A stretch of DNA of 64,000 nt from a candidate division WOR-3 bacterium (GCA_965648905.1 CBFGIT010000003.1:64001-128000), one strand, 5' to 3'. Positions 814 to 31,318 are shown, counted from the stretch's first letter. Notes: generated by a model not told the origin, from the letters alone. A program made the numbers and translations.

Positions 814-1041
814 CGCACCGGCCGACTCGGCCGTCGTTCTGGACGCCTGATCTTCCCGCCTGCCGGCGCTGATTGGCACAACTCCCCGCCAGCGGCACGA
901 CCGTGAGGGCAGTTGTTGACATCGCGCCTGAGGGGATATAATTACTGGTCGAACTCATGGTTATCGAGAGCGACATCGCCACCACCATTCGGGATGGCGC
1001 TGTCAAGTCTGTCATTACACTCTTACCTTAAGGAGGTCCGC

Positions 1042-16736: not shown

Positions 16737-16772
16737 AATGAGCATACCCGGGCGGGCGACAAGTTGTCGGCC

Positions 16773-18122
16773 ATGATTGGTTCAACTGTCGGGGACTACC
16801 GTGTCACCGAGAAGCTCGGGGCCGGTGGGTTCGGCGTTGTGTACAAGGCCGTGCACCGCATGTTGGAACAGGAAGTCGCCATCAAGACCCTGGACCCGAT
16901 TCTCACCCGCGACCCCAAGTTCCGCCAGCGGTTCTTTGACGAGGCCCGGACCCAGGCCCGGCTCAAGCACCCGAACATCGTCGTACTGCACAACTTCTTC
17001 GAGTACGACGGCCAGTACTTCATCGTGATGGAATACGTCGAGGGCGTGAATCTGGCCGGCGGCCAGTTCGCCCGCACCCTTTCCGACCTCATCAAGCCGG
17101 GCCCGATTCCGGAACCACGAATCATCGCCATTGCCCGCCAGATTCTCGACGGTGTAGGCTGTGCCCACGAACACGGCGTGCTCCACCGCGACATCAAGCC
17201 CCTGAACGTTCTCCTGACCGAGAAAGGGCTGGTCAAGATTGCCGACTTCGGCATCGCCAAGATTGTCGGTGGCGACACGAGCGTATCGGTCTCAGGCACG
17301 CGGGTCGGCACTGCGCCTTACATGTCGCCCGAACAGGTACTGAACGAACCGCTCACCCGCGCGTCAGACATCTACTCTCTCGGCATCACCCTGTATGAGA
17401 TGGCCGTAGGCGAAATTCCGTTCAAGGCAACCTCGACCGAGTCGATTGAGAAACAACACCTGTACGCGCCGCCGCCGCCCCTGCGCAAACGCAACCCTTG
17501 GATTTCCGAGAACTTCGAAGCCGTGGTCCTCAAGGCACTGGCCAAGAAGCCGGAGGAACGGTTCCAGACCTGCGAAGAGTTTTCTGCCGCTCTTGAGGGA
17601 AGAGGCACGGCACCGCAGCCGCGACCTGTGTCTCAACTCGAAGTCACCCGGCCCGAGCCGCCTGCGCCGCGCTCTGAGCTGAGTACTCCGCGCTCTTCGC
17701 CCGTCGATTCTCGCGACCCCGCATCCCGAAACCGCCGTCGGGCCGGGTTGTACATCGGACTGGCAGCAGCAGCTATTGCCGCAGCCGTGGGCATTGGCCT
17801 GCTGCTCAGGCCGAAGCAGGCGCCACTGCCAGAGTCGGGGCCGGCCCGCGTCGAGATGCCCGAGCTTGCCGGCATGGCACTTGCGGACGTGCAGGATGCA
17901 GTACGGCAAAGAGGACTGGTTCTGGTCGGGGTAGACAGCATTCTGACTGACGACGTTGCCAAAGGCAGGGTCGTTTCCTTTTCGCCGGGTGCCGGCACCA
18001 GTGTCATGCGGGGCGACTCAGTACGCATCACCTATTCCTGGGGTCGCAAGACCTGTCCGGACTGCAGCACCCCCCGAAACAAGACTGCCCGATTCTGCAC
18101 CAAGTGCGGGTACAAGTTCTAG
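16773..18122 (+). CDS. Transmembrane Ser/Thr protein kinase with PASTA domain and C-terminal zinc ribbon
   Basis: GAGGFG, VAIK, HRDIKPLN, DFG, YMSPEQ; TM helix; PASTA; CPDC...CTKC; ATG 16773 (MIGSTVG) parallels the start of the second kinase. Confidence 0.92.
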   Translation: MIGSTVGDYRVTEKLGAGGFGVVYKAVHRMLEQEVAIKTLDPILTRDPKFRQRFFDEARTQARLKHPNIVVLHNFFEYDGQYFIVMEYVEGVNLAGGQFARTLSDLIKPGPIPEPRIIAIARQILDGVGCAHEHGVLHRDIKPLNVLLTEKGLVKIADFGIAKIVGGDTSVSVSGTRVGTAPYMSPEQVLNEPLTRASDIYSLGITLYEMAVGEIPFKATSTESIEKQHLYAPPPPLRKRNPWISENFEAVVLKALAKKPEERFQTCEEFSAALEGRGTAPQPRPVSQLEVTRPEPPAPRSELSTPRSSPVDSRDPASRNRRRAGLYIGLAAAAIAAAVGIGLLLRPKQAPLPESGPARVEMPELAGMALADVQDAVRQRGLVLVGVDSILTDDVAKGRVVSFSPGAGTSVMRGDSVRITYSWGRKTCPDCSTPRNKTARFCTKCGYKF

Positions 18123-18261
18123 CGATGAACCGCTGACGGCTCACAGCCGACAGCCTACAGCAATCAGCGAATGCCCTCTCCCTCGACGGGCGCTGCGCCA
18201 GCTACGCGCCGGGTCGTCTGCTTCCTGTTGACACGGCACAGCAGTCAGCTACATTTGACCG

Positions 18262-19776
18262 GTGCCGCAGACATATCCTGCTCCGCGCTCATCACCCGCT
18301 GCTCGTCGTTCATCCCTCGCTCATCGTCTTGTCCTCATCTCCCTTCACTCACTACTCATCACCCTCCTCCTTTTTTCGCTCGCCGCGAAGAAGTGCCCGC
18401 AGTGCGGCCGGGAGTACGACGACAGCCAGAACTTCTGCGCCGAGTGCGAGGATGCTGAAGGCAGGCCGGTGCGGCTCAGGGCCGTGCCGGCAAAGCCCAG
18501 GGAGAAACCGAAGGTGCAGGGAACCGTGATTCTGTCCGGCGACACCCTCGTTGTTTTGTCGACTCCGTCCGGTGCCGCAGTCAAGGTTGATGACCGGTAC
18601 GTGGGTAATACGCCGGACACTCTGGTCGGTCTGGGCCTCGAAGTGGGCGTGCACTCAATCCAACTGAGCGCACCCGGCCATACCGACTTCACGACCGAGC
18701 TCGAAGTCCGTCCGGTCGTACCGGTCGCAGGCCGGGTTCTTGCTGCTCCGGAAAGCCTGTTCTTCTTCTCCGAACCAGTCGGTGCCGAAGTGCTGCTCGA
18801 CGGCAGACCGGCAGGCAACACGCCGGACACTGCGGTCGGGCTCAAGCCGGGCAGGCACGTCGTGGTAATGAACCTGACCGGCTTCCTGCCCTGTACCACC
18901 GAGGTCGAGGTACCCTTGCCGGTCAAGGTCTTCCTCGGCCGAACCACTGCGGGCCACGAAGAGTGGCTCTGGCTCAAGGATTCGTCAGTAATGGTAAGAA
19001 TCCCGGCGGGCGAGTTTGAAATGGGCAGCGCAACGGCCGACGACCCACGTGACGAGCGACCCCTGCACCGGGTATACCTTGACGAGTACCTCATCGACAA
19101 GTACGAAGTCACCAACCACCAGTTCGAGAAGTTCGTGACCGAGACCGGATACAAGACCGAGGCTGAGAAAGCCGGCGTTGGCTGGTACTTTGTGACTCAG
19201 ACACCAAAATGGGAAGCAAGAAAAGGAATAAGCTGGCGGACTTTCTTCACGCCGGAAAGGAAAGACCATCCGGTCGTGCTCGTTTCGTGGAACGACGCCA
19301 GGGCCTACTGCGACTGGGCTGGCAAGAGACTGCCAACCGAGGCTGAGTGGGAAAAGGCAGCGCGTGGCACTGGTACGAGGACATTTCCCTGGGGTGAGGA
19401 ACCACCAGACGCAGGCGGTGTGAACCGGGTCAACTGGGGACGGGGCATGAGACGGGAAGACCTTCTCCGTGACGGCTACGAACATACTGCGCCGGTCGGT
19501 ACCTTCCCTGCCGGCTCGTCGCCTTATGGCTGCATGGACATGGCCGGCAATGCTCAGGAGTGGTGTAACGACTGGTACGACCCGGACTACTACAGCACCT
19601 CAAGAACCACAGGCCGGAATCCGGCCGGGCCGGACTCAGGCTCAGCCCGGGTCCTGCGCGGCGGCTCGGCCTACAGCCAGACAAACGAACTCCGCTGTGC
19701 CGACCGCTTCTTCTGCCCGCCTGCTGCTGCCTATGACATCATCGGGTTCCGCAGCGCAGCAGGCACTGCCAAGTGA
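18262..19776 (+). CDS. Secreted zinc-ribbon + 2x PEGA + FGE-sulfatase (CLec-fold) domain protein
   Basis: Signal peptide; CPQC...CAEC; STPSGAAVKVD/SEPVGAEVLLDG PEGA repeats; KRLPTEAEWEKAARG, DMAGN, RVLRGGS, GFR. Confidence 0.85.
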   Translation: MPQTYPAPRSSPAARRSSLAHRLVLISLHSLLITLLLFSLAAKKCPQCGREYDDSQNFCAECEDAEGRPVRLRAVPAKPREKPKVQGTVILSGDTLVVLSTPSGAAVKVDDRYVGNTPDTLVGLGLEVGVHSIQLSAPGHTDFTTELEVRPVVPVAGRVLAAPESLFFFSEPVGAEVLLDGRPAGNTPDTAVGLKPGRHVVVMNLTGFLPCTTEVEVPLPVKVFLGRTTAGHEEWLWLKDSSVMVRIPAGEFEMGSATADDPRDERPLHRVYLDEYLIDKYEVTNHQFEKFVTETGYKTEAEKAGVGWYFVTQTPKWEARKGISWRTFFTPERKDHPVVLVSWNDARAYCDWAGKRLPTEAEWEKAARGTGTRTFPWGEEPPDAGGVNRVNWGRGMRREDLLRDGYEHTAPVGTFPAGSSPYGCMDMAGNAQEWCNDWYDPDYYSTSRTTGRNPAGPDSGSARVLRGGSAYSQTNELRCADRFFCPPAAAYDIIGFRSAAGTAK

Positions 19777-20295: not shown

Positions 20296-22764
20296 ATGAC
20301 GAAGCTGAAAGTACTCATTGGCCCGAACCCGGGTCAGGAAATCGAAGTCACGGGTGCGGGCGTGCTGTTCGGCTATCGCGGTGAGAAGCTGAGGGCCGCG
20401 GCTGCGAACCGCGCTGCGTATGGCCTGCCCGAATCGGGCGAACTCAGGCTCGTTGAATACCAGGACCCAGGCCATACGTTGTCCGGCCTGCATGCCTGGG
20501 TCGGGTTCAACCGCCAGGGCGAGCTTGTGGTCCGGGACCTGGGCTCAAGGAACCACGTCTATGTCGGTTCAAGCGACGAGCCGGTCAAGGAGGCGCGGCT
20601 CAGGCACGGCGACAAAGTCAGGCTTTGTCGCGGCGGGGCAGTGACCTTCTCGGTCGAACTCGAAGAGCAGCCTGCCTGTGGCGCGACAATCCACGGCCCA
20701 GTGCCGTGCCCGGCGCCCGGGCAGCCTGCGGTCGTGAAGATGCCCGGCAACGTGCTCACCATCGGCCGGGCCCCGGACAACGACCTTGTGCTCGACTTTC
20801 CCCAGGTGTCGCGCCACCACTGCCGGATTGTGCGCCAGGACGACGGCACGCACATTCTTGACCTGAACTCGACCAACGGCACTTTTGTCAACGGCCATCG
20901 GGTGAAACAGGCCCGGCTTGCGGTCGGCGATGTCATCAACCTCGGTTCCTACGCGCTCTGCTTTGAGCAGGACCGGCACTTCAGCCAGGCCAGCCCAGCC
21001 GGTCGTGCCAGCCTTGTCTGCCACGACATCCGCAAAGCAGTCAAAGACAAGGTCATTATCCAGGGCATCTCGTTTGTCTCCTGTCCGAGCGAGTTCACCG
21101 GCCTTGTCGGTACCTCAGGCTCGGGCAAGACCACGCTCCTGAACGTCATCACCGGCTACGACAACACCGCGACCGGCCAGGTGCTGCTCAGCGGGGTTGA
21201 CCTGTACGAGCACTACGATGCTCTGCGCGGCAATATCGGCTACGTGCCGCAGGATGATATCATCCACCGGACTTTGACTGTGGAACAATCGCTCTACTAC
21301 ACTGCCCGGCTCAGACTGCCGGAAGACACGACCAAAGACGAAGTTCGGCGCCGGGTGGACAAGGTGATTGCCGACCTTGGTCTGGAAGGCTGTCGTCACG
21401 TGCGCATCGGTGACCCGGTGAAGCGCGGCATTTCCGGGGGCCAGCGCAAGCGGGTCAACCTTGCTCAGGAACTCATCACCGAGCCGGCCTGTCTTTTCCT
21501 GGACGAGCCTTTGTCCGGGCTCGACCCCTCGACCGCGGTTGAAGTTACCGAAGTCCTTGCCGACGCGGCCCGCAGCGGCCGGAGCGTCATTCTCACCACG
21601 CACAACGTCGAGTCGCCCCGCACCTTTGAGGTGCTCGGGCTGGTGCTCCTGATTCATGCCGGCCGCCTGGTCTACTATGGCCCGGCCCGCGAGGTCTTCG
21701 ACTACTTCGGATTCGGCCGCGACTACCCGCCCACTGTCCTTTCTCATCTCCAGGGCAAGTACTGTCCCAAATGCGACCGGGCGTTTGTCAAAGCCACAGG
21801 CCCGGTGCGCGACTGCCCGGGCTGCCACGAAGACCTCTACAAAGACCCGGAGTACTGGGAAACGAAGTTCCGCAATTCTGCCTGGTATGCAAAATACGTG
21901 GCCGGCCGAATGGAGGTGAGAAGCGTCAGCACCGGGGTCGGCCGCAAGGTCAAGCGCCAGCAGGCCAACGGACTGCGCCAGTGGTGGATACTGGTTCAGC
22001 GCTACTGGAAGATGAAACTCGCCGACACTGCCGGCACCGCGGTCCTGATGGCCCAGGCCCCGGTCATCGCCGTGCTCATCGGCCTGGTGTTCGGCAACAA
22101 AGGCTACCAGTACATGGGCGGGGTGCTGTTCATGATGGCACTCGCTGCCATCTGGTTCGGCGCAACCAACTCCTGCCGCGAAATCGTGGCCGAGCTTTCG
22201 GTCTACCGCCGCGAGCGGATGGTCAACTTGAAGATTGCGCCCTACATCCTTTCCAAGGCATTTGTCCTTTCGGTCTTTCTGCTGGTCCAGTGCCTGGTGC
22301 TTGCTACCATCGTCAAGCTGATGGTCAAACAACTGCCCGGCAGCATACCGGGTTTCACTGCGGTGCTCTTGCTCGGCGCGGTTGGCGGCTCAAGCATGGG
22401 CCTGCTCATCTCGGCCCTGCTCTCCTCGACCGAAGGCGCGATGGGTCTGGTCCCGGTCACACTCATACCTCAGGTCCTCTTTGCCGGCATGGTTGTGTCC
22501 TTGCCTCAGCTCGGCCCGATGAAGTTCCTGGCCAACTTCATGGTCTCGCGCTGGGTCCTTGATGCGCTCTCTCATTTCAGTACCAGGACCACCGGCGAGG
22601 TCATCACTGCTCTGGCCGCGACCGAAAAGGGCGGAGCAATCTTCTACTGGTTCGACGAGATGCCGAGCCTCGGCATGTCGCTCGACGTCCTCATCCTCCT
22701 TGTGCTCACCGTAACCTTCACCATCCTCACCGGCATCGCGCTCAAGGCGAAGGACATAGTTTGA
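20296..22764 (+). CDS. FHA-FHA-ABC ATPase-permease fusion exporter (Rv1747-like architecture)
   Basis: FHA motifs (LSGLHA...DLGSRN; IGR...VSRHHC...STNGTFVNG); Walker A GTSGSGKT; ISGGQ; LFLDEP; C-terminal TM domain; CPKC...CPGC insert. Confidence 0.9.
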   Translation: MTKLKVLIGPNPGQEIEVTGAGVLFGYRGEKLRAAAANRAAYGLPESGELRLVEYQDPGHTLSGLHAWVGFNRQGELVVRDLGSRNHVYVGSSDEPVKEARLRHGDKVRLCRGGAVTFSVELEEQPACGATIHGPVPCPAPGQPAVVKMPGNVLTIGRAPDNDLVLDFPQVSRHHCRIVRQDDGTHILDLNSTNGTFVNGHRVKQARLAVGDVINLGSYALCFEQDRHFSQASPAGRASLVCHDIRKAVKDKVIIQGISFVSCPSEFTGLVGTSGSGKTTLLNVITGYDNTATGQVLLSGVDLYEHYDALRGNIGYVPQDDIIHRTLTVEQSLYYTARLRLPEDTTKDEVRRRVDKVIADLGLEGCRHVRIGDPVKRGISGGQRKRVNLAQELITEPACLFLDEPLSGLDPSTAVEVTEVLADAARSGRSVILTTHNVESPRTFEVLGLVLLIHAGRLVYYGPAREVFDYFGFGRDYPPTVLSHLQGKYCPKCDRAFVKATGPVRDCPGCHEDLYKDPEYWETKFRNSAWYAKYVAGRMEVRSVSTGVGRKVKRQQANGLRQWWILVQRYWKMKLADTAGTAVLMAQAPVIAVLIGLVFGNKGYQYMGGVLFMMALAAIWFGATNSCREIVAELSVYRRERMVNLKIAPYILSKAFVLSVFLLVQCLVLATIVKLMVKQLPGSIPGFTAVLLLGAVGGSSMGLLISALLSSTEGAMGLVPVTLIPQVLFAGMVVSLPQLGPMKFLANFMVSRWVLDALSHFSTRTTGEVITALAATEKGGAIFYWFDEMPSLGMSLDVLILLVLTVTFTILTGIALKAKDIV

Positions 22765-22803
22765 TGACCGCCACCAGCTCACAGCCGACAGCCCACAGTT
22801 AGT

Positions 22804-23169
22804 ATGCGGGACATCAGAAGCTATGCCGTGTTCAAACTGGCAGACAGACTGGTGCTGGACGTGTACCGGGCCACCGCGCGATTCCCGAAAAGCGAGCTGT
22901 TTGGTCTGACATCCCAGATGCGGCGGGCAGCGTACTCGATTCCCATGAACCTGGCTGAAGGCGCGGCCCGGCGAAGCCAGAAGGAGTTCGCCCGAGCGGT
23001 AGACATTGCTGTCGGCTCTTGCGAAGAAGTGCGTTACCAGCTACATCTCGCGGCCGAACTCGGCTACCTGGAGCGTACGATTGCCCACAGAATCGATTCT
23101 GAGTATGAACAAGTCAAGAAGATGCTGTCGAAGCTCTTGCAGCGGCTGTCCGAGACCCCGGAGCTGTGA
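22804..23169 (+). CDS. Four-helix-bundle protein (23S rRNA IVP / Avd-related family)
   Basis: FPKSELFGLTSQMRRAAYSIPMNLAEG...GSCEEVRYQL signature. Confidence 0.88.
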   Translation: MRDIRSYAVFKLADRLVLDVYRATARFPKSELFGLTSQMRRAAYSIPMNLAEGAARRSQKEFARAVDIAVGSCEEVRYQLHLAAELGYLERTIAHRIDSEYEQVKKMLSKLLQRLSETPEL

Positions 23170-23193
23170 GCTGTCGGCTGTAGGCGGTCAGCG

Positions 23194-25140
23194 ATGATTG
23201 GCTCCACCGTCGGCAACTACCGCCTCGTCGAGGAAATCGGCCGGGGCGGAATGGGCACGGTGTACAAGGCTGTGCACGTGCGCATCGCGGAACAGGTTGT
23301 TGCCGTGAAGCACCTTGCGCCCCTGCTCATCTTCGGCGACTCAGGCGCGGCCCAGCGGGCCAAAGAAGAAGCCAGCTCTCAGGCCCGGCTCAAAGACCAC
23401 CCCAACATCGTCTCGCTCTACGACTACGTCGAGACCGGCGAGGGGCTGTTCCTGATTATGGAGTACGTCCGCGGAGTCCAGGGCATGCGCAACATGGCCG
23501 AGCTGGTCCGGCGCTGCGGGCCTCTGCCTCTGGACGAGCTGAAGCGACTGTTCGGCCAGGTTCTCTCCGCGGTCGGGTTCGCGCACAGACAGGGCATCAT
23601 CCACCGCGACCTGAAGCCCCTGAATATCATGCTCTCCGAGTTTGGGGCCAAGGTCGGCGACTTCGGTATTGCGCGGATTGTGTCCGGCGACACCAGCGTC
23701 TCGGTCTCGGGCCACCGCGTCGGCACTCCGGCCTACATGTCGCCGGAGCAGGTGCTGTACAAGAAACTGACTCGGGCGACCGACATCTACTCGCTTGGCT
23801 GCACCCTGTATGAACTGGCAACCGGCAGGCTGCCGTTCAAGGCTTCGGAAACCTCGTCCTTCTTCGAGGCGCACTTACAGGACCCGCCAATTCCGCCGCG
23901 CTCGGTCAACCCGGCGCTTCCTGAGCGGCTTGAACAGGTCATCCTCAAAGCCATGGCCAAGAAACCGCAAGACCGGTTCCAGACCTGCGAAGAGTTCGCC
24001 GCGGCGCTCCAGAGAGTGGGTGTGGCTTCGCAACCGCGGCCCGAACCGGCTGAACCACTACCAGACAAGACCAGACCCGAGCCGGAGCCGACCCCGAAGC
24101 CCCAGCCCGGACCCCTGCCTGAGTTGCAAGACGAAGCGCGAAGGCCCAGGCGCGGCCGCCGGGCGGGGTGGCTGATTGGCCTGAGCCTTGCCGGCGTGGT
24201 CGCGATTGCCGTGACTGCGGCCTTGGTCCGCGCTCCTCGCTCCTCGCCCAGCGTTCAGCATTCCTATTCCTCCCCGGGCCGTGAGCTGTCAGCGGAAAGC
24301 GGTTGGCGTTCTCTGGGCCGCAACGCTCAGGGCTATGACGAAATCCTCTGGCTCAAGGACTCGTCGGTGATGATACGAATCCCGGCCGGTGAACTCTGGA
24401 TGGGCAGTGCTGAGGGCGAAGGTGCCAGCGACGAGCGGCCGCAACACAAGGTCTACTTGAGCGAGTACTACATCGACAAGTACGAGGTGACGAACGAGCA
24501 GTTCGAGCGGTTTGTGAAAGCGACCGGCTACCAGACCGATGCCGAGCGGCTCGGGTCAGGCTATGTCGATGACAAGGGCTCCTCGAAATTGATAGACAAG
24601 AAAGGCGTGAGCTGGCGCACTTACTATGGCTACGCCACGAGAAACCACCCGGTTGTGCTCGTGTCGTGGAACGATGCCAAGGCCTATTGTGACTGGGCGG
24701 GCAAGCGGCTGCCGACCGAGGCCGAATGGGAGAAAGCAGCGCGTGGCACTGACGCGCGCAAGTATCCCTGGGGCAACAGCGAACCCGACGGAAGTCGGTG
24801 CAATTACGCAGACAAGAACACCGACTTCTTCTGGCGCGATGCCAACGATGGATACGCTCAGACTGCGCCGGTCGGCACGTATCCTGCTGGTGCTTCGCCC
24901 TATGGCTGCATGGACATGGCAGGCAATGTCTGGGAATGGTGCAATGACTGGCGTGACGGAGACTACTGCAGCACAAGCCCGAGCAACAACCCGGAAGGGC
25001 CGTCGTCTGGCTCGTTCCGCGTCCTCCGTGGCGGTTCCTGGGCCCTCGATGCCAGGTTCCTGCGCTGCGCTCGTCGGGCCGGGGGCGTTCCATCGCTCCG
25101 GACCTACTTTCTGGGCTTCCGTTGTTCCTTGCGTCAGTAG
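23194..25140 (+). CDS. DGR target 1: Ser/Thr kinase - TM - extracellular FGE-sulfatase (CLec) domain with variable C-terminus
   Basis: GRGGMG, HRDLKPLN, DFG, YMSPEQ; TM GWLIGLSLAGVVAIAVTAALV; FGE motifs; 3' end aligns to TR. Confidence 0.93.
   Translation: MIGSTVGNYRLVEEIGRGGMGTVYKAVHVRIAEQVVAVKHLAPLLIFGDSGAAQRAKEEASSQARLKDHPNIVSLYDYVETGEGLFLIMEYVRGVQGMRNMAELVRRCGPLPLDELKRLFGQVLSAVGFAHRQGIIHRDLKPLNIMLSEFGAKVGDFGIARIVSGDTSVSVSGHRVGTPAYMSPEQVLYKKLTRATDIYSLGCTLYELATGRLPFKASETSSFFEAHLQDPPIPPRSVNPALPERLEQVILKAMAKKPQDRFQTCEEFAAALQRVGVASQPRPEPAEPLPDKTRPEPEPTPKPQPGPLPELQDEARRPRRGRRAGWLIGLSLAGVVAIAVTAALVRAPRSSPSVQHSYSSPGRELSAESGWRSLGRNAQGYDEILWLKDSSVMIRIPAGELWMGSAEGEGASDERPQHKVYLSEYYIDKYEVTNEQFERFVKATGYQTDAERLGSGYVDDKGSSKLIDKKGVSWRTYYGYATRNHPVVLVSWNDAKAYCDWAGKRLPTEAEWEKAARGTDARKYPWGNSEPDGSRCNYADKNTDFFWRDANDGYAQTAPVGTYPAGASPYGCMDMAGNVWEWCNDWRDGDYCSTSPSNNPEGPSSGSFRVLRGGSWALDARFLRCARRAGGVPSLRTYFLGFRCSLRQ
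25008..25132 (+). repeat. DGR variable repeat VR1
   Basis: Ungapped 125-bp alignment to TR with 24 mismatches, all opposite TR adenines. Confidence 0.95.
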
Positions 25141-25191
25141 TCTTATCTGTGAATCTGGTAATCTGGGAATCTGAATATCTGGTCTTCCTAC

Positions 25192-25212
25192 AGCGGCGGC
25201 GAAGCGGCCGCT
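25192..25212 (+). promoter_or_regulatory. DGR target-recognition hairpin downstream of VR1
   Basis: AGCGGCGGC-GAA-GCGGCCGCT (9-bp stem with one G-G mismatch, GAA loop). Confidence 0.65.
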
Positions 25213-25225
25213 CGCGCGCATTTCT

Positions 25226-25576
25226 ATGGCAAAGACTGAGTTCCTGGTGATTCAGCGGAGCTACGATTTCACGAAATGGCTGCTTCAGCACACGCAGAAG
25301 TTTCCTAAGTCGCTTCGCTTCTCACTGGCGGTCAGAATGGAGAACCGTATGCTGGAGGCGCTGGAGTCAGCAGTGGTTGCCAACATGAAGCGGGACAAGC
25401 TCACGTTGCTGGCGCGGGCTGATGAGGCATTGGAGTCGCTTCGGATACTGGTGCGGCTCAGCTTTGAGATGAAGGTGCTGGCCGCCAACTCCTACGAGTA
25501 TGCGGCCAGGGAACTGGATGAAATTGGCAAACTTCTGGGCGGCTGGATACGGCAGCAAAGCCGGCCGACCGGTTGA
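25226..25576 (+). CDS. avd: DGR accessory variability determinant
   Basis: 116 aa; YDFTKWL...KFPKSLRFSL...LRILVRLS...EIGKLLGGW; lies directly upstream of TR. Confidence 0.92.
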   Translation: MAKTEFLVIQRSYDFTKWLLQHTQKFPKSLRFSLAVRMENRMLEALESAVVANMKRDKLTLLARADEALESLRILVRLSFEMKVLAANSYEYAARELDEIGKLLGGWIRQQSRPTG

Positions 25577-25591
25577 GGGCACAGGCAGAAA

Positions 25592-25716
25592 TGGCTCGTA
25601 CCGCGTCAACCGTGGCGGTTCCTGGAACAACGATGCCAGGAACCTGCGCTGCGCTAATCGGAACAGGAACGAACCATCGAACCGGAACAACAATCTGGGC
25701 TTCCGTTGTTCCTTGC
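25592..25716 (+). repeat. DGR template repeat (TR)
   Basis: AAC-rich copy of both VRs (reads GSYRVNRGGSWNNDARNLRCANRNRNEPSNRNNNLGFRCSL); 29 adenines, 11 AAY codons; diverges from the VRs after TTGC (IMH*/IMH boundary); GC hairpin follows at about 25748-25769. Confidence 0.95.
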
Positions 25717-26046
25717 AGCAGTTGCAGCATGACCGCCGAACTGATGCCGCCGGTTCACGGACCGGCGGACTGCGGCGAGCGGCTACTGAAGTGCCTGTTT
25801 CCTGAGTCTGCGCCACTCTTCCCGCCGTCTTTGCGAGGGCTGCGGATTGAGGCGCGGTGTAGACCAAAATGGAGGAGTCCGGGTGCCGGCAATTGAGCGG
25901 TCTTCGTCAGCCAAAGTCGGCACCCGGGCGCTGACGCCGGCGACCCCTCATTACATGAGGGACACTGGGGAAGCAAGCAGGGCGTTCAGGGTGACTCGGC
26001 GGTGTTGTGTTCTCGAGCCGCCGGCTAGGGGTCGTCGGGCCGGGCA

Positions 26047-26319
26047 CCGGCGACTCCTCGGAGACCCTCGGAGTGACAGCCCCTCTGTCATTCCGAGGAA
26101 CGAAGCGACGAGGAATCGCCGGGCTGCAGAGCAACTCGGAGTGACAGCCCTTCTGTCATTCCGAGGAACGAAGTGACGAGGAATCGCCGAGCTGCAGGAC
26201 AACCATGAAACAGTATTACGTCCCCCCTTCCGCCTTCCGCCGACCGGCGACTCCTCGGAGAACCTCGGAGTGACAGCCCCTCTGTCATTCCGAGGAACGA
26301 AGTGACGAGGAATCGCCGG
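26047..26319. repeat. Three palindromic REP-like repeats (26047-26122, partial 26135-26189, 26244-26319)
   Basis: Core CTCGGAGTGACAG-CCCYT-CTGTCATTCCGAG-GAACGAAGYGACGAGGAATCGCCG present three times. Confidence 0.85.
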
Positions 26320-26322
26320 CCG

Positions 26323-27372
26323 ATGCCGCCCAGTCTTAGCGGGTTGTTCGACCGACTGACGAGCTTCGACAACCTGCTGGCCGCGTTCCTGAAGGCCCGA
26401 CGCGGTAAGCGCCTCAGACCGGCGGTCGCTGCGTTCGAGTTGGACCTTGAACACGAGCTTCTCCGGCTGCAGGACGAACTGACTGCCGGCACCTGGCGGC
26501 CCGGCAGCTACCACAACTTCTACGTCCACGACCAGAAGCGCCGGCTGGTCACCGCAGCATTTTTCCGCGACCGGGTCGTGCACCATGCTCTGCTGAACGT
26601 ACTGGAGCCGGTGTTCGAGCCTTCGTTTCTCTACGATTCGTATGCCTGTCGCCGCGGCAAAGGCCAGCATCGAGCGATTTGCCGCTACCAGCGCTGGTCG
26701 CGTGGACACCAGTACGTCCTGCGCGGCGACATACTCAAGTTCTACCCGAGCGTTGATCACGCGATTCTCCTGCAGTTGCTGAGCCGGAAGATCCGAGACC
26801 GAAGAGTCCTTGCCCTGTGCACGATGATTGTCCGGAGTGGGACCGGAATCCTGGACTCGGAGTATCGGATTACCTGGTTTCCGGGTGATGACCTGTTCTC
26901 GCCCCTGGGGCGACCGCGCGGCATTCCCATCGGCAACCTGACCAGCCAGTTCTTTGGCAATGTCTACCTGAATGAGCTGGACCACTTCGTGAAAGAGCAA
27001 CTGTGCTGCCGGTGCTACCTACGGTACATGGACGATGTCGCGGTGTTCGGGGATGACCCGAGGTCACTGGCGCTGGCAAAGCGGCGTATCAGCGAGTTTC
27101 TGGCCGGCCTGCGGCTGACCCTGCGCCCGGAGAAGACGCGCGTCTGGCAGACCGGCGACGGAGCCGAATTCCTCGGGTTCCGCGTATTCCCCGGGCATCG
27201 GCTGGTGCGTAAGGCCACGGCCTATCGGTACGGCCGGCACCTGAGACGGTTGAGTCGCAGGCAGGTGCGTGCATCTCTGACTGCCTGGTTCGGGCACGCC
27301 TGCCACGCCGATTCGTTCCGACTGAACGCCGAGCTTCTGAGACGGGCCGGGCTGCTCGCCGTGTGGTGTTGA
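26323..27372 (+). CDS. DGR-class reverse transcriptase
   Basis: FRDRVVHHAL, DSYACRRGKG, DILKFYPSVDH, GIPIGNLTSQFFGNVYL (SQ motif typical of DGR RTs), YLRYMDD, FLGF; ATG 26323 preferred because the GTG at 26302 lies inside the repeat. Confidence 0.95.
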   Translation: MPPSLSGLFDRLTSFDNLLAAFLKARRGKRLRPAVAAFELDLEHELLRLQDELTAGTWRPGSYHNFYVHDQKRRLVTAAFFRDRVVHHALLNVLEPVFEPSFLYDSYACRRGKGQHRAICRYQRWSRGHQYVLRGDILKFYPSVDHAILLQLLSRKIRDRRVLALCTMIVRSGTGILDSEYRITWFPGDDLFSPLGRPRGIPIGNLTSQFFGNVYLNELDHFVKEQLCCRCYLRYMDDVAVFGDDPRSLALAKRRISEFLAGLRLTLRPEKTRVWQTGDGAEFLGFRVFPGHRLVRKATAYRYGRHLRRLSRRQVRASLTAWFGHACHADSFRLNAELLRRAGLLAVWC

Positions 27373-27402
27373 CAAGCCTGTCCTGCTTGCTAGATTTACC
27401 GC

Positions 27403-28431
27403 ATGCAAAGGCAGACGAGGAGCGGGTTCCGCGTTTCGCGTTTGGTGCTCATCGTTCTCCTCGGTCTTTTCGTCCTCCTCTCCCTCGCCGCGAAGAAGTG
27501 CCCCAAGTGCGGCAAGGAGTACGACGACGACCAGAACTTCTGCGCGATGTGCGAGGACTCCGCGGGCGGGCCGGTCCGGCTCAAGCCGGTCGAGAAGCCC
27601 AGACCCAAGCCCAAGGCGCCAAGAGCCGAAAGCTCACAGCCGCAAGCTCCGGCCGGGACACAGTATGTCTCGCGGGGCCGCAACGCTCAGGGCTATGACG
27701 AAATCCTCTGGCTCAAGGACTCGTCGGTGATGATACGAATCCCGGCCGGGGTCTTCACGATGGGCTCAGATGACGGAGGGAGCGGCGAGAAGCCGGTGCA
27801 CCAGGTCTATCTCGATGAGTACTACATCGACAAGTACGAGGTGACGAACCGCCAGTACAAGAAGTTCTGCGACGCAACCGGCCGGAGTTATCCGCCTGAC
27901 CCGGACTTCCTTGCCATGGCTAATTACATCACGAACTACCCATCTTACCCGGTTGTCAATGTCTCATGGGAAGACGCCAAGGCCTACTGTAACTGGGCCG
28001 GCAAGCGGTTGCCGACCGAAGCCGAATGGGAGAAAGCAGCCAGAGGAACAGATGCGAGGAAGTATCCGTGGGGCAATTCGGAGCCGAATGCCGGCGGAAT
28101 CTACCGGGCGAACTACGACCCCGGGAGCTACACCGAAGACGGGTATGCCCGGACAGCCCCAGTCGGCTCCTTCGAGCGCGGCGCGAGTCACTACGGCTGT
28201 CTGGACATGGCAGGCAACGTCTGGGAATGGTGCAATGACTGGTATGACGAGAACCACTACAACGCAAGCCCAAGAAACAACCCGCAAGGCCCTTTGTCTG
28301 GCTCGTACCGCGTGCTCCGTGGCGGTTCCTGGGGCATCGATGCCAGGTACCTGCGCTGCGCTTATCGGTTCAGGCTCGATCCTTCGTACCGGAACTACTA
28401 TCTGGGCTTCCGTTGTTCCTTGCGTCAGTAG
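27403..28431 (+). CDS. DGR target 2: secreted zinc-ribbon + FGE-sulfatase (CLec) domain protein
   Basis: Signal peptide; CPKC...CAMC; FGE motifs; 3' end aligns to TR; own promoter-like TTGACA-16-TAGATT at 27369-27396. Confidence 0.93.
   Translation: MQRQTRSGFRVSRLVLIVLLGLFVLLSLAAKKCPKCGKEYDDDQNFCAMCEDSAGGPVRLKPVEKPRPKPKAPRAESSQPQAPAGTQYVSRGRNAQGYDEILWLKDSSVMIRIPAGVFTMGSDDGGSGEKPVHQVYLDEYYIDKYEVTNRQYKKFCDATGRSYPPDPDFLAMANYITNYPSYPVVNVSWEDAKAYCNWAGKRLPTEAEWEKAARGTDARKYPWGNSEPNAGGIYRANYDPGSYTEDGYARTAPVGSFERGASHYGCLDMAGNVWEWCNDWYDENHYNASPRNNPQGPLSGSYRVLRGGSWGIDARYLRCAYRFRLDPSYRNYYLGFRCSLRQ
28299..28423 (+). repeat. DGR variable repeat VR2
   Basis: Ungapped alignment to TR: 16 mismatches at TR adenines plus one synonymous C>G near the 5' end. 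Confidence 0.95.
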
Positions 28432-28482
28432 TCTTATCTGTGAATCTGGTAATCTGGGAATCTGAATATCTGGTCTTCCTCT

Positions 28483-28503
28483 AGCGGCGGCGAAGCCGCC
28501 GCT
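28483..28503 (+). promoter_or_regulatory. DGR target-recognition hairpin downstream of VR2
   Basis: Perfect AGCGGCGGC-GAA-GCCGCCGCT. Confidence 0.75.
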
Positions 28504-28520
28504 CGGCCGCAAAAAAGGGG

Positions 28521-28597
28521 GCAGCCTGCAGCCGACTGCGTGCAGCCAACAGCCGACAGCTTACAGCCATCAGCCGCCAGCGTACAGTTATCAGCCT
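28521..28597. repeat. Degenerate heptamer array (nCAGCnn x11)
   Basis: gcagcct gcagccg actgcgt gcagcca acagccg acagctt acagcca tcagccg ccagcgt acagtta tcagcct. Confidence 0.75.
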
Positions 28598-28969
28598 GTG
28601 GCTGAATGAGTTAGACGGCTTCGCTCGGAACGGACCAGTAAGCCTCGAACTGACGATGACTTGCCTGAGACCTGGGTCAGGGAGGGGCCGTACCCTACGC
28701 CGTAACTACGTCTCCGACTCAAAGTGCGGTTGAGCTGGCGCTTGCCTTTGTCTTACCCGGTCTTATGCCGCGCGATGTTGCCGAGGCCTTACTTCACATG
28801 TTGTCTTGGGTGCTGTCTCGACCGATGCCGCGGGCAGAAGCTCAAGCAGCAAAACAGGCAGCAGCTCGTGCAGGTAGTCAGGCAGTTACGTCAGCGGGTC
28901 TCTGAGCGTCGATGTCGGCGACTTGGCCGGCGTCAGCCCGATAATCACGCCCGGTTTCATGCAGGTATT

Positions 28970-31318
28970 CTACCGGGCGAAAACGAGCTTCGTAACGGTC
29001 GTTGATGCCGACCGGGTGCGGAGAAAGTAGACGCCCGGGGCAAGTCGGCCCAAGTCGTTTGAGCCGGACGAAAGGTCCACGACCTTGCGGCCGTCTGCGG
29101 CCAGGAGTGATGAGCCGTGTTCGGTGACAAAGAGAAGCCGACGTGCGACGACAGTTCTCGCTCCAGGCGTCGGCCCTTGCCGACGGTTCTCGGCCAGCGC
29201 AGCCGCGGTCGTGTCGCGGATAACCGTGATGCTCGAACCCGTGCTGTTTGCGACGTAGACTCGGCCGCGGTTCTGGTTGTGCGCCAGACCAATCGGGCCG
29301 TAGCCGACCCCAAGCGTCTGTTCCACGGTGTTGGTAGCGCAGTTGATGACCGTGACGTTGTCGCTTAGGGAGTTGGCGCAGTAGACCCGGTTGTGCGGGC
29401 GGTCGTAAAGTAGTGCGTTCGGGCCGTCGCCGACCGAAGCCGCAGCGACGACTGCGAGCGCGGCCACGTCTACAACCGAGACCTGGTCGCTGCCGTTGTC
29501 GGCGACGTAGACCAGAGGCCCGGGGCCGCTTGTGAGCGCGCTTGGCATCAGGCCGACCGCAACCGTGCCGAGCACGCTGTCACCGGCCGCGTCGATCACC
29601 GAGACGCTGGCGCCACCGTTGTTGGCACACGCAATTCGGCCGGTCGGCTGGTTCAGGCAGAGGGCATCCGGTCGAATGCCGGTAGTGATGGTCGTGCGCG
29701 GCTGGTGCGTCAGGGCGTCAATGACGGTGACGGTATTGGAAGAGGTGTTGGCGCAGTAGACCTTGTCGCCATCCGGCCCGACAAGGAGTGCCCGCGGACG
29801 TGAGCCGACCGGAACCGTGGCGATGACCGAGTCAGTCCGGCAGTCTACGACCGAGACTGTACCCGAAGTGTTGTTGGCGCAGTAGACCGCGCGTTCAGTC
29901 TCATTGGCGACGAGGGCGGTTGGTTTGCCGCCGACCGGAATACGGGCAACGACTGTGTCGGCCGACCCGGCGATGACCGTGACTTGGTTGTCGGTTGCGC
30001 AGGCGGCATAGACCTTATCCATGCCGAGCGCGAGCGCGGTCGGATTGACCCCGGTGCGGACCGTCGCAAGGACACGGTTGTCTTCGCCGCTGATGACCGA
30101 AACCGTGCTGCTCCACTGGTTGGCCGAGTAGACTTTGTTCTGTTCGGCGTGCCAGACGACCGCTCCGGGCCAGCATCCGAGCGGGACCGTCGAGCGCACC
30201 GCGCTGGTCGCCGCATCAATGACTGTCACGTCGCAACTGTGCCAGTTGACGCAGTAGACCCGACCCGCACCTGGGTCACAGGCAATCGTCCAGGGATAGT
30301 CGCCGGCCAGAACCGTGGCGATGACCGAATCGGTTCTGGTGTCAATCACCGACACACTGCCCGCACTCTGATTGGCACAGAAGACCCGGCTCGTGGTCGA
30401 ATCAAAGCACAGGGCGACCGGTCGGTCCCCAACCCGCACCGTGGCGAGCACGCTGTCGCCGAGCGCGTCAATCACGGTTACATCGTCGGTGTTCATGTTG
30501 GCGCAGTAGACCTTGCCGGCCGGGCCGGGAATGAGTGCCCGGGGCGTGTTGCCGACCGGTAGAGTCGCGACCACGGTGTTGGTCAGCGCGTTGATGACCG
30601 TGACCGAGTTGTCGAGCGCATTGGCACAGTAGACCCGGTCGCCGGCCGCGTCACAGCAGAGCAGCCGCGGGGTCAGGCCGACCGGAATCGTGGCCAGGAC
30701 CGTATCGGCTCTGGCGTCCACTACCGTTACCGTGTTGTCTGTCTCGTTCGCGACATATATCCGATTCAGCCTGCTGTTGCCGGCGACAAAGCAGGGTCGA
30801 GCGCCGGTCCGGACCGTGCCGAGCAAGGTGTTGGTCACGCCGTCAATCACGCTCAGACGGCCCGCAGTGTACATCGCGCAGTAGACTTTGTTCCCGGTCG
30901 CGTTGACGGCCAGAGCACAGGCCGACCAGCCGATACTGATATCCGCAAGGACCTCAAAGGTCGCGCCGTCAATCACGGTGAGCAGGTTGTCGTAGTAGTT
31001 GGCGCAGTAGACCTTGTTGGCGGCCGGGTTGTAAGCCGCGTCAATCGTGAAGTAGCCGGAGCGCACCAAGGCGAGCTTGTCGCCCCGGATGCCGTCAAAG
31101 ACGATGGTGCGCTCGCCTTCCTGGCCACTGACAAAGACCGCATTGTTGGCGGTATTGACCGCGATTGCCCGCGGACTCAGGAGCCCGCCGAACGAGTCGG
31201 GCAACGTGATGGTTGTCTCAAGGAACTGGGCCGACCCGACCGAGACCGCAAACCACCACGCGGCCAACCGAACGGTGACCACCAAAGCTTCAGGAGCGGA
31301 CCGGCACCAGGGCATCAC
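28970..31318 (-). CDS. YncE/YVTN-repeat double beta-propeller secreted protein with C-terminal sorting-like domain (start uncertain)
   Basis: About 14 KVYCANxxSxTVTVID...VGxxP repeats; ends LAPGVYFLR...TKLVFAR. Confidence 0.85.
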   Translation of the reverse strand: MMPWCRSAPEALVVTVRLAAWWFAVSVGSAQFLETTITLPDSFGGLLSPRAIAVNTANNAVFVSGQEGERTIVFDGIRGDKLALVRSGYFTIDAAYNPAANKVYCANYYDNLLTVIDGATFEVLADISIGWSACALAVNATGNKVYCAMYTAGRLSVIDGVTNTLLGTVRTGARPCFVAGNSRLNRIYVANETDNTVTVVDARADTVLATIPVGLTPRLLCCDAAGDRVYCANALDNSVTVINALTNTVVATLPVGNTPRALIPGPAGKVYCANMNTDDVTVIDALGDSVLATVRVGDRPVALCFDSTTSRVFCANQSAGSVSVIDTRTDSVIATVLAGDYPWTIACDPGAGRVYCVNWHSCDVTVIDAATSAVRSTVPLGCWPGAVVWHAEQNKVYSANQWSSTVSVISGEDNRVLATVRTGVNPTALALGMDKVYAACATDNQVTVIAGSADTVVARIPVGGKPTALVANETERAVYCANNTSGTVSVVDCRTDSVIATVPVGSRPRALLVGPDGDKVYCANTSSNTVTVIDALTHQPRTTITTGIRPDALCLNQPTGRIACANNGGASVSVIDAAGDSVLGTVAVGLMPSALTSGPGPLVYVADNGSDQVSVVDVAALAVVAAASVGDGPNALLYDRPHNRVYCANSLSDNVTVINCATNTVEQTLGVGYGPIGLAHNQNRGRVYVANSTGSSITVIRDTTAAALAENRRQGPTPGARTVVARRLLFVTEHGSSLLAADGRKVVDLSSGSNDLGRLAPGVYFLRTRSASTTVTKLVFAR

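Follow-up and report, generated by a model that had tools for sequence, protein, structure and literature searches.

An apparently functional chromosomal diversity-generating retroelement with a putative receptor kinase among its targets in a candidate division WOR-3 bacterium

Results

The window analysed here, a stretch of 64,000 nucleotides from a candidate division WOR-3 bacterium, carries what appears to be a functional chromosomal diversity-generating retroelement (DGR). All of its parts lie on the + strand, in the order given in a preliminary description of this DNA: target 1 (T1, 23194..25140), avd (25226..25576), the template TR (25592..25716), the RT gene (26323..27372) and target 2 (T2, 27403..28431). 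T1 encodes a Hanks-type Ser/Thr kinase that a Pro-rich linker and a single TM helix connect to an FGE-type CLec ectodomain; in T2, an N-terminal hydrophobic helix and a Zn-ribbon-like motif precede a Pro/Lys linker, which leads to an FGE-type CLec domain.

TR is 125 nt long and contains 29 adenines, of which 13 are at first, 14 at second and 2 at third codon positions, with 12 codons being AAC or AAT. In this 125-nt frame, VR1 (25008..25132, + strand) differs from TR at 24 of the 29 adenines and at no other site (24/24 mismatches), whereas VR2 (28299..28423, + strand) has 17 mismatches, 16 at adenines and one a synonymous C>G change at TR position 25607 (GTC>GTG, Val>Val). The probability that 24/24 mismatches would fall on adenines is ~2e-20 (hypergeometric, 131-nt frame with 31 adenines). 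In the 131-nt frame the substitutions in VR1 and VR2 are unlike, with 18 sites differing between the two, 17 of them at TR adenines. The computed alignments thus bear out the adenine-restricted mismatches that had first been read from the sequence, and the proposed ceiling of 4^29 = 2.9e17 DNA variants is correct. At the protein level, the 17 variable codons allow 6.2e15 variants, and stop codons cannot be reached by mutation of any TR codon.

The element had been described as having two targets, a count that proved too low: contig C9 has a third gene, T3, whose VR3 (C9:86560-86684, minus strand) differs from TR by 19 mismatches, 19/19 of them at adenines, so that at least three VRs match this TR. 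Identity to TR at non-A sites is 96/96 for VR1, 95/96 for VR2 and 96/96 for VR3 (287/288 in total), whereas between targets the 108 nt directly upstream of the VRs show an identity of 82-91%; the contrast recurs at third-codon positions. Because the VRs are nearly identical to TR at non-A sites while their flanks have diverged, this comparison shows that the VRs of T1, T2 and T3 have evidently been rewritten from the window's TR since the genes diverged. The contigs from the sequencing runs contain pieces of the organism at ~3x depth, and 0 of them cover a VR.

The product of avd scores 111.3 bits against NF033474 DivGenRetAVD (cut-off 80) and matches PF22296 (2e-22). RT has 349 aa when counted from a Met with a homologous counterpart in genome G021, a relative from a different genus, and its reading frame is open from a GTG at 26302. 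The best PDB match of RT is 8ub7 (E 1.6e-56), whereas the top-scoring group II RT reaches 1e-23. With Brt of Bordetella phage BPP-1 it shares 37% identity over 94% of its length; in these similarity searches it therefore sides with the DGR RTs. The alignment to the PDB match reveals YMDD and IGNLTSQ, the latter an instance of IGxxxSQ, which we take to be a hallmark of DGR RTs. Together with the adenine-specific mismatches and an Avd score above the cut-off, this affiliation upholds the initial assignment of the locus as a DGR. The closest named relative of RT, at 52% identity, is from a Candidatus Eisenbacteria MAG. The whole genome (3.0 Mb, 99.6% complete) contains one DGR RT.

Downstream of TR, alignment with G021 and metagenome contig L082 delineates a conserved, non-coding, Sp-like RNA region (25717..25889, + strand). 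It contains a hairpin, CCGCCGG-TTCACGGA-CCGGCGG (25747-25768), in which 3/7 stem pairs carry compensatory changes, with 21/21 cells paired in the alignment, and a conserved box, GACCAAAATGGAGGAGTCCGGG (25862-25883). An insertion of ~390 nt (25890..26322, + strand), absent from both G021 and L082, sets the spacer apart from the start of RT. A 77-nt hairpin repeat (family D6) occurs in it three times (26046-26122, 26114-26190 and 26243-26319); the repeat core is scattered in 14/41 related genomes, and a search of Rfam matched no family. Its position between the spacer RNA and the RT start means that the insertion could impair RT expression.

The 3' flank of VR1 (25133..25212, + strand) contains an IMH-like divergence from TR (GTCAGTAG vs AGCAGTTG in TR), ATCTG five times at exact 8-nt spacing (25145-25181) and a GC hairpin, AGCGGCGGC-GAA-GCGGCCGCT (25192-25212), with one mispair. 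The VR2 flank (28424..28503, + strand) likewise has five ATCTG copies (28436-28472) and a hairpin, AGCGGCGGC-GAA-GCCGCCGCT (28483-28503), which is perfect. Flanks of the VR1 type are conserved 3' of VR2 and VR3, as they are in G021 and L082; the hairpin is present in 6/6 aligned flanks, with 53/54 cells paired and two pairs changing on both sides. Its 3-nt GAA loop and its distance of ~60 nt from the VR differ from the hairpins of the phage DGRs treated in the cited part of PMC3240598, which have a 4-nt GRNA loop 4-34 bp from the VR. The 8-nt ATCTG array and GCGAAGC-type hairpin offer a variant recognition flank for mechanistic work.

The segments of T1 are a kinase domain (aa 9-264; Pfam Pkinase, 8e-52), a TM helix (aa 327-345; nt 24172-24228) and the FGE-type CLec domain (aa 393-644). 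All of the kinase motifs are there, namely GRGGMG (aa 16), VAVK (36), HRDLKP (137), DFG (156) and SPE (183), and the domain looks like an intact Hanks kinase. A script based on hydropathy and charge was used for the topology of T1 and T2. Six K/R residues flank the T1 helix on the kinase side as against two on the far side, a positive-inside bias that puts the variable FGE domain outside the cytoplasm, in line with the kinase/TM/outside arrangement initially proposed. We infer that T1 is a hypervariable receptor kinase whose ectodomain is joined to the kinase via a single TM helix.

Pfam FGE-sulfatase matches T1 and T2 with E-values of 1e-69 and 3e-67, and in each protein the domain extends to the last 4 residues. 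Residues 185-341 of T2 align to Treponema denticola TvpA (PDB 2y3c, E 4.5e-21) in a match that spans the VR, consistent with the earlier reading of FGE-type CLec folds as the variable surfaces; the VRs sit C-terminally in these domains. The 17 diversified codons correspond to the former active-site region of the FGE-type C-type-lectin fold. Where bacterial FGE (6muj) has LCHDSYC, whose two cysteines we take to be the catalytic pair, T1 has ALDARF and a gap; by this alignment the T1 domain is an FGE fold and not an enzyme. The missing Cys pair rules out a catalytic formylglycine-generating enzyme as an identity for T1.

The hydrophobic helix of T2 (aa 11-29, 17-19 residues) is followed by a CxxC...CxxC Zn-ribbon-like motif and, further on, by the FGE-type CLec domain (aa 110-338). 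The n-region contains 3-4 Arg, a cleavage site could lie at LAA-KK, and no lipobox was found in the N-terminus. T2 had been called a soluble secreted protein. Export is supported by the N-terminal hydrophobic helix, but solubility was overstated, a membrane anchor being, on the same features, as possible as a cleaved soluble form. T2 and T3 would be kinase-less proteins with the fold of the T1 ectodomain, tethered or released by the N-terminal helix. The suggested likeness to a receptor paired with a secreted antibody fails because VR1 and VR2 were written independently: their substitutions are unrelated and nothing couples them. A given antibody, by contrast, has a common variable region in its membrane-bound and secreted versions.

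Upstream of T1, all on the + strand, are two non-diversified paralogues, a kinase-TM-PASTA-Zn-ribbon protein (16764..18122) and a TM-Zn-ribbon-PEGA-FGE protein whose C-terminus no longer matches TR (18262..19776). They are followed by an FHA-FHA-ABC (G-type) half-transporter (20296..22764; two FHA stretches, ABC_tran and ABC2_membrane in Pfam) whose best PDB matches are ABCG transporters, and by a four-helix-bundle 23S_rRNA_IVP protein, a distant relative of Avd (22804..23169; PF05635 1.3e-34, TIGR02436). Inverted heptamer arrays bracket the IVP gene (22764-22798 and 23164-23198), which has the same position in G021 and in a further genome, G001. The IVP family has 9 copies in the genome and also occurs in relatives without the RT of this DGR; the gene is syntenic yet probably not part of the DGR. 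In G021, whose RT is 70% identical, the layout is the same: LEA_2, FHA-ABC, IVP, kinase-FGE with a VR, avd, TR, RT and ZnR-FGE with a VR. The FHA-ABC gene is found in 5/41 related genomes, with a Ser/Thr kinase gene beside it in 5/5.

Discussion

Taken as a whole, the locus is very probably a chromosomal DGR that rewrites the CLec tips of T1, T2 and T3, with T1 being a receptor kinase. By homology to BPP-1, an avd-TR-spacer RNA would be reverse-transcribed by RT-Avd with misincorporation opposite template adenines, and the cDNA would replace the last ~125 nt of targets with a matching 3' flank, here presumably the IMH-like junction, the 8-nt ATCTG array and the GC hairpin with its GAA loop.

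The DGR targets of free-living bacteria are nearly all uncharacterised, and this locus offers a compact, well-defined case: the kinase, apparently intact, bears a hypervariable ectodomain, a shared template has written two further paralogues that lack a kinase, and a conserved candidate output, the FHA-ABC exporter, lies alongside. In Mycobacterium tuberculosis, PknF adjoins the two-FHA ABC exporter Rv1747 and regulates it positively, according to the cited parts of PMC3138270 and PMC3908365. The FHA-FHA-NBD-TMD architecture is identical here and a Ser/Thr kinase gene lies alongside, which suggests a PknF-Rv1747-like output for the T1 kinase via the adjacent exporter; the kinase here differs in having a hypervariable ectodomain, and the likeness is one of architecture and gene adjacency, the link from kinase to exporter being synteny only. 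By analogy, a tentative proposal, somewhat less likely than not, is that T1 phosphorylates the exporter, or makes phospho-docking sites for it. Together with the variable ectodomain and the kinase-less paralogues, such a candidate output makes the question of what a DGR-diversified receptor controls experimentally testable.

A different reading casts the diversified proteins as "antigen sensors" in a conflict or immune system rather than environmental receptors that regulate an exporter. The term is reportedly used in this sense by Kaur et al. 2020, beside Dore et al. 2024. In favour of that reading, contig C51 carries a second avd-TR cassette whose VRs, three or more, lie in small FGE proteins with kinase-AAA, AAA+, Hsp70-like and HEAT genes around them, and the kinase matches the PADLOC phage-defence models PD-T4-6 and mad6, although those match any Hanks kinase. 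However, T1, T2 and T3 face outward and are without NTPase or effector domains, and their conserved partners are FHA-ABC exporter, LEA_2 and PASTA-kinase genes, so we regard antigen sensing as somewhat unlikely for them. The two readings are not mutually exclusive. It is also conceivable, if rather doubtful, that the one RT serves two Avd-TR cassettes, one for the T1-T3 surface set, with T1 gating the FHA-ABC exporter, and one for the cytosolic C51 set (avd2, TR2). In that event one enzyme would diversify both outward sensory and inward conflict-system repertoires, and through the receptor kinase a newly evolved ability to recognise a ligand would lead to phospho-FHA-controlled export.

VR3 is a probable trans target of the window's TR and RT. 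Directly 3' of T3 are a TR-type fragment of 63-67 nt with all adenines kept and the 3'-terminal ~32 codons of an RT gene, which imply that the C9 locus formerly had its own machinery; VR3 could accordingly be the frozen product of that now deleted cassette. At the 5 non-A sites where the C9 fragment and the window's TR differ, however, VR3 carries the window base at 5/5 (7/7 in a wider frame), its non-A sites match the window's TR without exception, and the ATCTG array and a perfect hairpin are retained behind it. The agreement would also be seen if the C9 fragment had mutated only after disablement, and on balance we consider an origin from the local cassette unlikely.

The three VRs may, alternatively, have been written in the past by an element that no longer works, for instance because the insertion uncoupled RT from its RNA or promoter. 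The three hairpin repeats between spacer and RT, found at this position in this genome only, are consistent with such a recent fossil, as are the single non-A change in VR2, the mispair in the VR1 hairpin and the decay that has already overtaken the sister cassette on C9. Against this, RT, Avd and TR are all uninterrupted, the catalytic motifs of RT are there and an SD-like GAGGA lies 11 nt upstream of the RT ATG. Moreover, with all but one of the non-A VR sites matching TR despite flanks that differ by 9-18%, any silence would have to be very recent, and we think it improbable that the element is dead. Whichever holds, turnover is on view in the decayed sister cassette, the probable trans target and the hairpin-repeat insertion within the element.

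A cytoplasmic location of T2 and T3, with the ribbon binding zinc inside and the helix acting as an N-out anchor, would suit Zn ribbons, which are mostly cytoplasmic, and an ambiguous charge rule (three K+R N-terminal to the T2 helix and four C-terminal to it), but is very unlikely given the short N-terminus with its Arg residues, the PEGA domains that follow the ribbon in the paralogue at 18262-19776 and in G021 T2, and the similar CxxC...CxxC behind the PASTA domain of the paralogous kinase at 16764-18122, which by analogy is outside because the PASTA domain of PknB-type kinases is extracellular.

The favoured reading of the locus as a working DGR leaves the established picture of these elements unchanged and makes it a clean example of a system type already described. 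It shares with the BPP-1 prototype (mtd-avd-TR-Sp-brt) an Avd, the related RT, a structured spacer after TR, adenine-specific mutagenesis, a VR at the 3' end of a CLec-fold gene and, as far as the cited part of PMC3240598 goes, a GC-rich hairpin after the VR. It differs in being chromosomal, with three targets split between two contigs, in its FGE-type rather than Mtd-type fold, and in the ATCTG array that separates the distant triloop hairpin from the VR; no phage genes were found near the locus.

Novelty had been claimed for the paired layout. That claim does not stand, as two-target cassettes make up 50/372 catalogued DGRs and the combination of kinase and FGE is category b12 in the catalogue portion cited from Wu et al. 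2018 (PMC5758913). Published precedents exist for kinase-CLec targets, for two-target cassettes, for remote targets and for degenerate loci alike. Category b12 and the variable proteins with a Ser/Thr kinase that Vallota-Eastman et al. 2020 (PMC7517822) describe in cyanobacteria, to the extent of the parts cited, also combine an N-terminal Hanks kinase with a C-terminal diversified CLec domain and have kinase-bearing and kinase-less paralogues genome-wide, with some remote targets. Most of the cyanobacterial proteins are predicted there to be cytosolic, whereas T1 has one TM helix and its VR outside the cell; the host here is moreover from an uncultured lineage, and the conserved neighbour is the FHA-ABC exporter.

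Thiohalocapsa PB-PSB1, in the cited portions of Dore et al. 2024 (PMC10907252), likewise has a complete locus besides degenerate loci lacking RT or TR, trans targets inferred from a VR-TR match at all non-A sites, and MITE-like hairpin-repeat arrays inside its DGR loci. The genome here differs in being small, with a single DGR RT, and in that T1-T3 are surface receptors and not of the STAND/NACHT type, to which the C51 cassette is closer. TvpA, described in passing in PMC10907252 as an outer-membrane lipoprotein, likewise belongs to the FGE-type CLec variable proteins that lack FGE chemistry, and the T. denticola DGR also has multiple non-adjacent targets (PMC5758913, in the part cited). T1 differs from TvpA in being a receptor kinase, and T2 and T3 in having a helix and Zn-ribbon N-terminus in place of a lipobox.

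Organization of the cassette

The diversity-generating retroelement (DGR) lies entirely on the + strand in the order target gene 1 (T1, 23194–25140), accessory gene avd (25226–25576), template repeat (TR, 25592–25716), reverse transcriptase gene (RT, open from 26302, with a probable start at ATG 26323, and ending at 27372) and target gene 2 (T2, 27403–28431). This is the order given in the preliminary description, whose mismatch counts were likewise reproduced exactly on the computed alignment. A repeat search identified a 131-nt family with three copies in the window, at 25008, 25592 and 28299, of which the middle copy is the TR, with 29 adenines on a 125-nt frame. On this frame the variable repeat of T1 (VR1) differs from the TR at 24 positions, all 24 of them TR adenines. 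The repeat of T2 (VR2) has 17 mismatches. Sixteen are at adenines; the other is a synonymous C>G (GTC>GTG) at TR 25607. The probability that chance alone would put all 24 VR1 mismatches on adenines is ~2e-20, computed on the 131-nt frame with 31 adenines. The TR adenines occupy codon positions 1, 2 and 3 in 13, 14 and 2 cases, respectively, and give 17 variable codons, 12 of which are AAC or AAT. Stop codons are unreachable from any variable TR codon, and 6.2e15 protein variants are available per VR.

The Avd protein scores 111.3 bits on NF033474, the NCBI DGR-Avd equivalog model (cut-off 80); a PDB sequence search with Avd gave no match at E ≤ 0.01. The best solved relative of the RT is the 328-residue RT of PDB entry 8ub7, which we take to be a Bordetella enzyme (E = 1.6e-56, versus 1e-23 for the best group II intron RT), and in the alignment to it the RT carries YMDD and IGNLTSQ. 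Together with 37% identity over 94% of length to brt in the record of Bordetella phage BPP-1, these scores bear out the earlier assignment of the RT to the DGR type.

In this genome alone, compared with the related genome G021 and metagenome contig L082, a conserved box (25862–25883) is followed by an insertion of ~390 nt. Within it, a 77-nt hairpin repeat found nowhere else in this genome occurs three times (26046–26319); the ~35-nt core of the repeat also occurs, dispersed, in 14 of 41 related genomes. MITE-like arrays within DGR loci have been described (PMC10907252). The likely RT start, ATG 26323, is homologous to the G021 Met and lies just past the third repeat copy, which also supplies the Shine–Dalgarno-like GAGGA 11 nt before it. 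With this start the RT open reading frame is complete, yet it now lies farther from the template RNA.

Target proteins and their topology

T1 combines a Pkinase domain (aa 9–264, E = 8e-52), in which the Hanks motifs GRGGMG, VAVK, HRDLKP, DFG and SPE are retained, with an FGE-sulfatase domain (aa 393–644, E = 1e-69). T2 has an FGE-sulfatase domain at aa 110–338 (E = 3e-67), and the Treponema variable protein TvpA (PDB entry 2y3c) aligns to T2 residues 185–341, VR included (E = 4.5e-21). When T1 is aligned with a bacterial FGE, the stretch LCHDSYC, which holds the catalytic cysteine pair, is replaced by variable residues and a gap, and for this reason the FGE-type domain of T1 is regarded as a binding scaffold, not an enzyme.

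A Kyte–Doolittle scan of T1 detects a single hydrophobic helix at aa 327–345, flanked by six Lys/Arg on the kinase side versus two on the other. This charge difference across the one helix would place the FGE domain outside the cytoplasm, in agreement with the receptor topology proposed earlier, with the kinase inside and the variable domain outside. T2 consists of a short Arg-rich N-terminus, a hydrophobic stretch of 17–19 residues, a CPxCG...CxxC Zn-ribbon-like motif, a Pro/Lys linker and the FGE domain. Paralogues of T2 carry PEGA domains after the ribbon, and a paralogous kinase (16764–18122) has a similar Zn-ribbon-like motif after its PASTA domain, a domain that would be extracellular by analogy with PknB-type kinases. 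These paralogues argue that the part of T2 after the helix is outside the cell. Of the description of T2 as a soluble secreted protein, export is thus upheld by the N-terminal hydrophobic helix and "soluble" is unsupported. The accompanying analogy to a receptor and its secreted antibody fails, since VR1 and VR2 arose independently of each other and their substitutions are unrelated.

In the linker of T1, 37 nt (24272–24308) just before the region common to T1, T2 and a third target, T3, are 76% identical to the heptamer array before T1 (23157–23193). The likeness could be a trace of the kinase–FGE fusion or due to chance.

A third target and a decayed cassette

The genome assembly comprises 3.01 Mb in 60 contigs and is 99.57% complete. 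A BLAST search of the TR against it, the means proposed in the preliminary description for finding remote VRs, located VR3 on the minus strand of another contig (C9:86560–86684); the count of two targets was therefore too low. All 19 mismatches between VR3 and the TR are at adenines. The corresponding gene, T3, is flanked by genes for a subtilase and a serpin and encodes 372 residues that end in VR3, with an N-terminus like that of T2 and an FGE domain 80% identical to that of T1.

Downstream of T3 is a TR-type fragment of 63–67 nt, with all 18 adenines of the stretch kept, joined to the final ~32 codons of an RT gene. This locus is a cassette that deletion has stripped of its machinery. Five non-adenine positions (seven on a slightly wider frame) distinguish the fragment from the window TR, and VR3 has the window base at all of them. 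Identity to the TR at non-adenine sites is 96/96 for VR1, 95/96 for VR2 and 96/96 for VR3, while the 108 nt directly upstream of the VRs are just 82–91% identical between targets; third-codon positions are identical at 28–33 of 36 sites upstream versus 39–40 of 40 within the VR. Because the non-adenine sites match the TR almost fully while the upstream flanks have diverged, the three VRs appear to have been repeatedly overwritten from one template, and VR3 is a probable trans target of the window TR. Dore et al. inferred trans targets by the same reasoning (PMC10907252).

The subtilase upstream of T3 has 964 residues, and a HEPN-domain gene and the serpin gene adjoin the decayed TR/RT remnant (L001 6071–7883, on C9). 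We also considered an upstream paralogue in the window (18262–19776) as the bearer of a fourth VR and rejected it, as its C-terminus gave no meaningful alignment to the TR.

Target-recognition flanks and spacer

Homology between TR and VRs stops at CCTTGC, which is followed by GTCAGTAG in the VRs versus AGCAGTTG in the TR. The 3′ flanks of VR1, VR2 and VR3 are 93–97% conserved (71–74 of 76 nt). Between the VR end and a hairpin, each contains five ATCTG units at an exact 8-nt spacing (25145–25181, 28436–28472, and behind VR3 on C9). The array recurs in flanks of G021, L082 and G019, a further related genome, and is conserved across genera. It was not seen in five more distant DGR loci (L005, L006, L007, L009 and L011) and is therefore not regarded as general among related DGRs. 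We know of no described role for it.

The hairpin, AGCGGCGGC-GAA-GCCGCCGCT, lies ~60 nt from the VR end behind all three VRs, with one mispair behind VR1. In an alignment of six flanks (three of this genome, two of G021 and one of L082), 53 of 54 stem cells pair and two of nine pairs change on both sides; these numbers are small but mutually consistent. GCGAAGC is a very stable DNA mini-hairpin. The element required for homing in BPP-1 is described by Guo et al. 2011 as a GC-rich 7–10-bp stem with a 4-nt GRNA loop, 4–34 bp from the VR (PMC3240598); the hairpin found here is a variant of it, with a GAA loop and a distance of ~60 nt.

The ~170 nt downstream of the TR are conserved with G021 and L082 and include a second hairpin, CCGCCGG-TTCACGGA-CCGGCGG, in which three of seven pairs show changes on both sides while all 21 of 21 cells remain paired. 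This stretch fits a structured spacer RNA of the BPP-1 type. No Rfam family matched within 22500–29000 at E ≤ 1.

A second Avd–TR cassette

Contig C51 of the same genome (locus L079) carries a second cassette. Its accessory gene, avd2 (670–1098, minus strand), scores 101.7 bits on NF033474, with a product 37% identical to Avd, and its template, TR2 (529–658, minus strand), has 130 nt and 33 adenines. At least three VRs belong to it (1123–1214, 5523–5631 and 12536–12665); 16/17, 16/17 and 17/18 of their mismatches are at adenines. They form part of small FGE proteins, whose neighbours are kinase-AAA, AAA+, Hsp70-like and HEAT genes. The place of the ATCTG array is taken by another 8-nt repeat, TTTGCTGC. 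A search of 40 relatives did not find Avd2, the sole other match being the Avd1-type gene of G021.

Another FGE gene starts ~190 nt after TR2, leaving no space for an RT there. The assembly (99.6% complete) contains no second DGR-type RT; the sole other RVT_1 match, on contig C31, is a group II intron RT/maturase by its score on TIGR04416 (358 bits versus a cut-off of 300) and was rejected on that ground as the enzyme of this cassette. Either the assembly has a gap where a second RT would be, or both cassettes are served by the window RT. A CGGTYCACGGAC motif at the same offset in the spacers of both cassettes (12 nt, E = 0.5) is a weak hint.

Activity and relation to known systems

We examined three hot-spring metagenome runs of one study, as Logan contigs. 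One run contains exact pieces of the locus of 289, 220 and 148 nt, with 0–2 differences and ~3x depth. The three runs gave 514, 362 and 158 matching contigs, mostly other organisms' kinase, FGE or RT genes, of which 331, 232 and 111 are less than 90% alike. None spans a VR, so these contig-level data, ~3x deep, carry no VR sequence. The element is real and well formed and is probably active or only very recently silenced.

Systems of this kind are already known, and the window element adds an example. In one survey, two-target cassettes account for 50 of 372 catalogued DGRs, and the same catalogue includes remote targets as well as category b12, kinase+FGE (PMC5758913). Ser/Thr-kinase targets are frequent in a survey of metagenome-assembled genomes (PMC11661182), and kinase–CLec paralogue families are described in cyanobacteria (PMC7517822). 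New here are a third target, written in trans, a sister locus that has decayed and the variant target-recognition flank, as well as a conserved neighbour, a two-FHA ABC exporter gene (FHA-ABC), as a testable output.

Relatives and conserved neighbourhood

Among the 41 genomes of the same order that were searched, seven have RT matches at E ≤ 1e-20, and the DGR RT is present only in this genome, in G001 (same genus, 72% identity) and in G021 (another genus, 70%). Matches in the other four are ~30–33% identical, in open frames of 764–907 residues, and G001 has a further match of 31% in a 752-residue frame. G021 shares the layout LEA_2, FHA-ABC, IVP (a 23S_rRNA_IVP-family gene), kinase–FGE with VR, avd, TR, RT and Zn-ribbon–PEGA–FGE with VR. 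Upstream it has one more VR, the third; judged by eye, the mismatches of this VR to the TR of G021 appear to lie at adenines. The downstream target of G021 has an in-frame TAG at the VR start (L003 9217–9219), produced by one non-adenine change, C>A; the gene is a pseudogene or the consensus is wrong at this site. Downstream of the RT, G001 has LEA_2, FHA-ABC, IVP and kinase genes, and a TR search gave no match; because the RT is at the contig start, the avd/TR/VR region is probably unassembled. A scan for TR/VR pairs in 10 of 60 related loci, the top-listed ones except L010 and L012, found an adenine-biased pair in six.

The two-FHA ABC transporter occurs in 5 of 41 genomes, with a Ser/Thr kinase beside it in all five. 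In G037 this is a kinase–PASTA gene in place of kinase–FGE. In G019 a 730-residue kinase–FGE gene with a VR-like end and an ATCTG array lies near FHA-ABC (L080, G019:C16, 12700–14940, minus strand). The 15 kb examined around it yielded neither avd nor RT, and no DGR-type RT was found in the G019 genome; the gene is an orphan or relic target. By synteny, the window kinase and FHA-ABC resemble the PknF–Rv1747 operon, where an ABC exporter with FHA domains is under positive control by the kinase (PMC3138270, PMC3908365). A full-text literature search found no paper with both "diversity-generating retroelement" and "forkhead-associated".

The IVP gene, upstream of T1, was rejected as a second DGR accessory: its family has nine copies in the genome and, in the two relatives checked (G007 and G005), is present without the RT of this DGR. 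The gene is bracketed by imperfect inverted repeats of ~32–35 nt made of heptamer arrays (22764–22798 and 23164–23198), also seen at L003 3760–3791/4233–4264 and L002 4231–4262/4730–4761; the heptamer sequence differs in G001 and the inverted arrangement is kept. Against 300 random loci, the inverted repeats around four of the nine IVP loci here exceed the 99th percentile. The bracketing recalls those IVP genes that are located within excised rRNA stem-loops.

A tandem paralogous module lies upstream (15260–20282), composed of a PASTA protein, LEA_2, kinase–TM–PASTA–Zn-ribbon, TM–Zn-ribbon–PEGA–FGE (not diversified) and LEA_2. Since a kinase followed by a Zn-ribbon–FGE protein thus occurs twice in the window, the arrangement suggests an ancestral gene pair. 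Beyond T2, on the minus strand (28970–31318), is a gene made of ten ~126-nt repeats that encodes a 782-residue beta-propeller protein (YNCE/lactonase-like).
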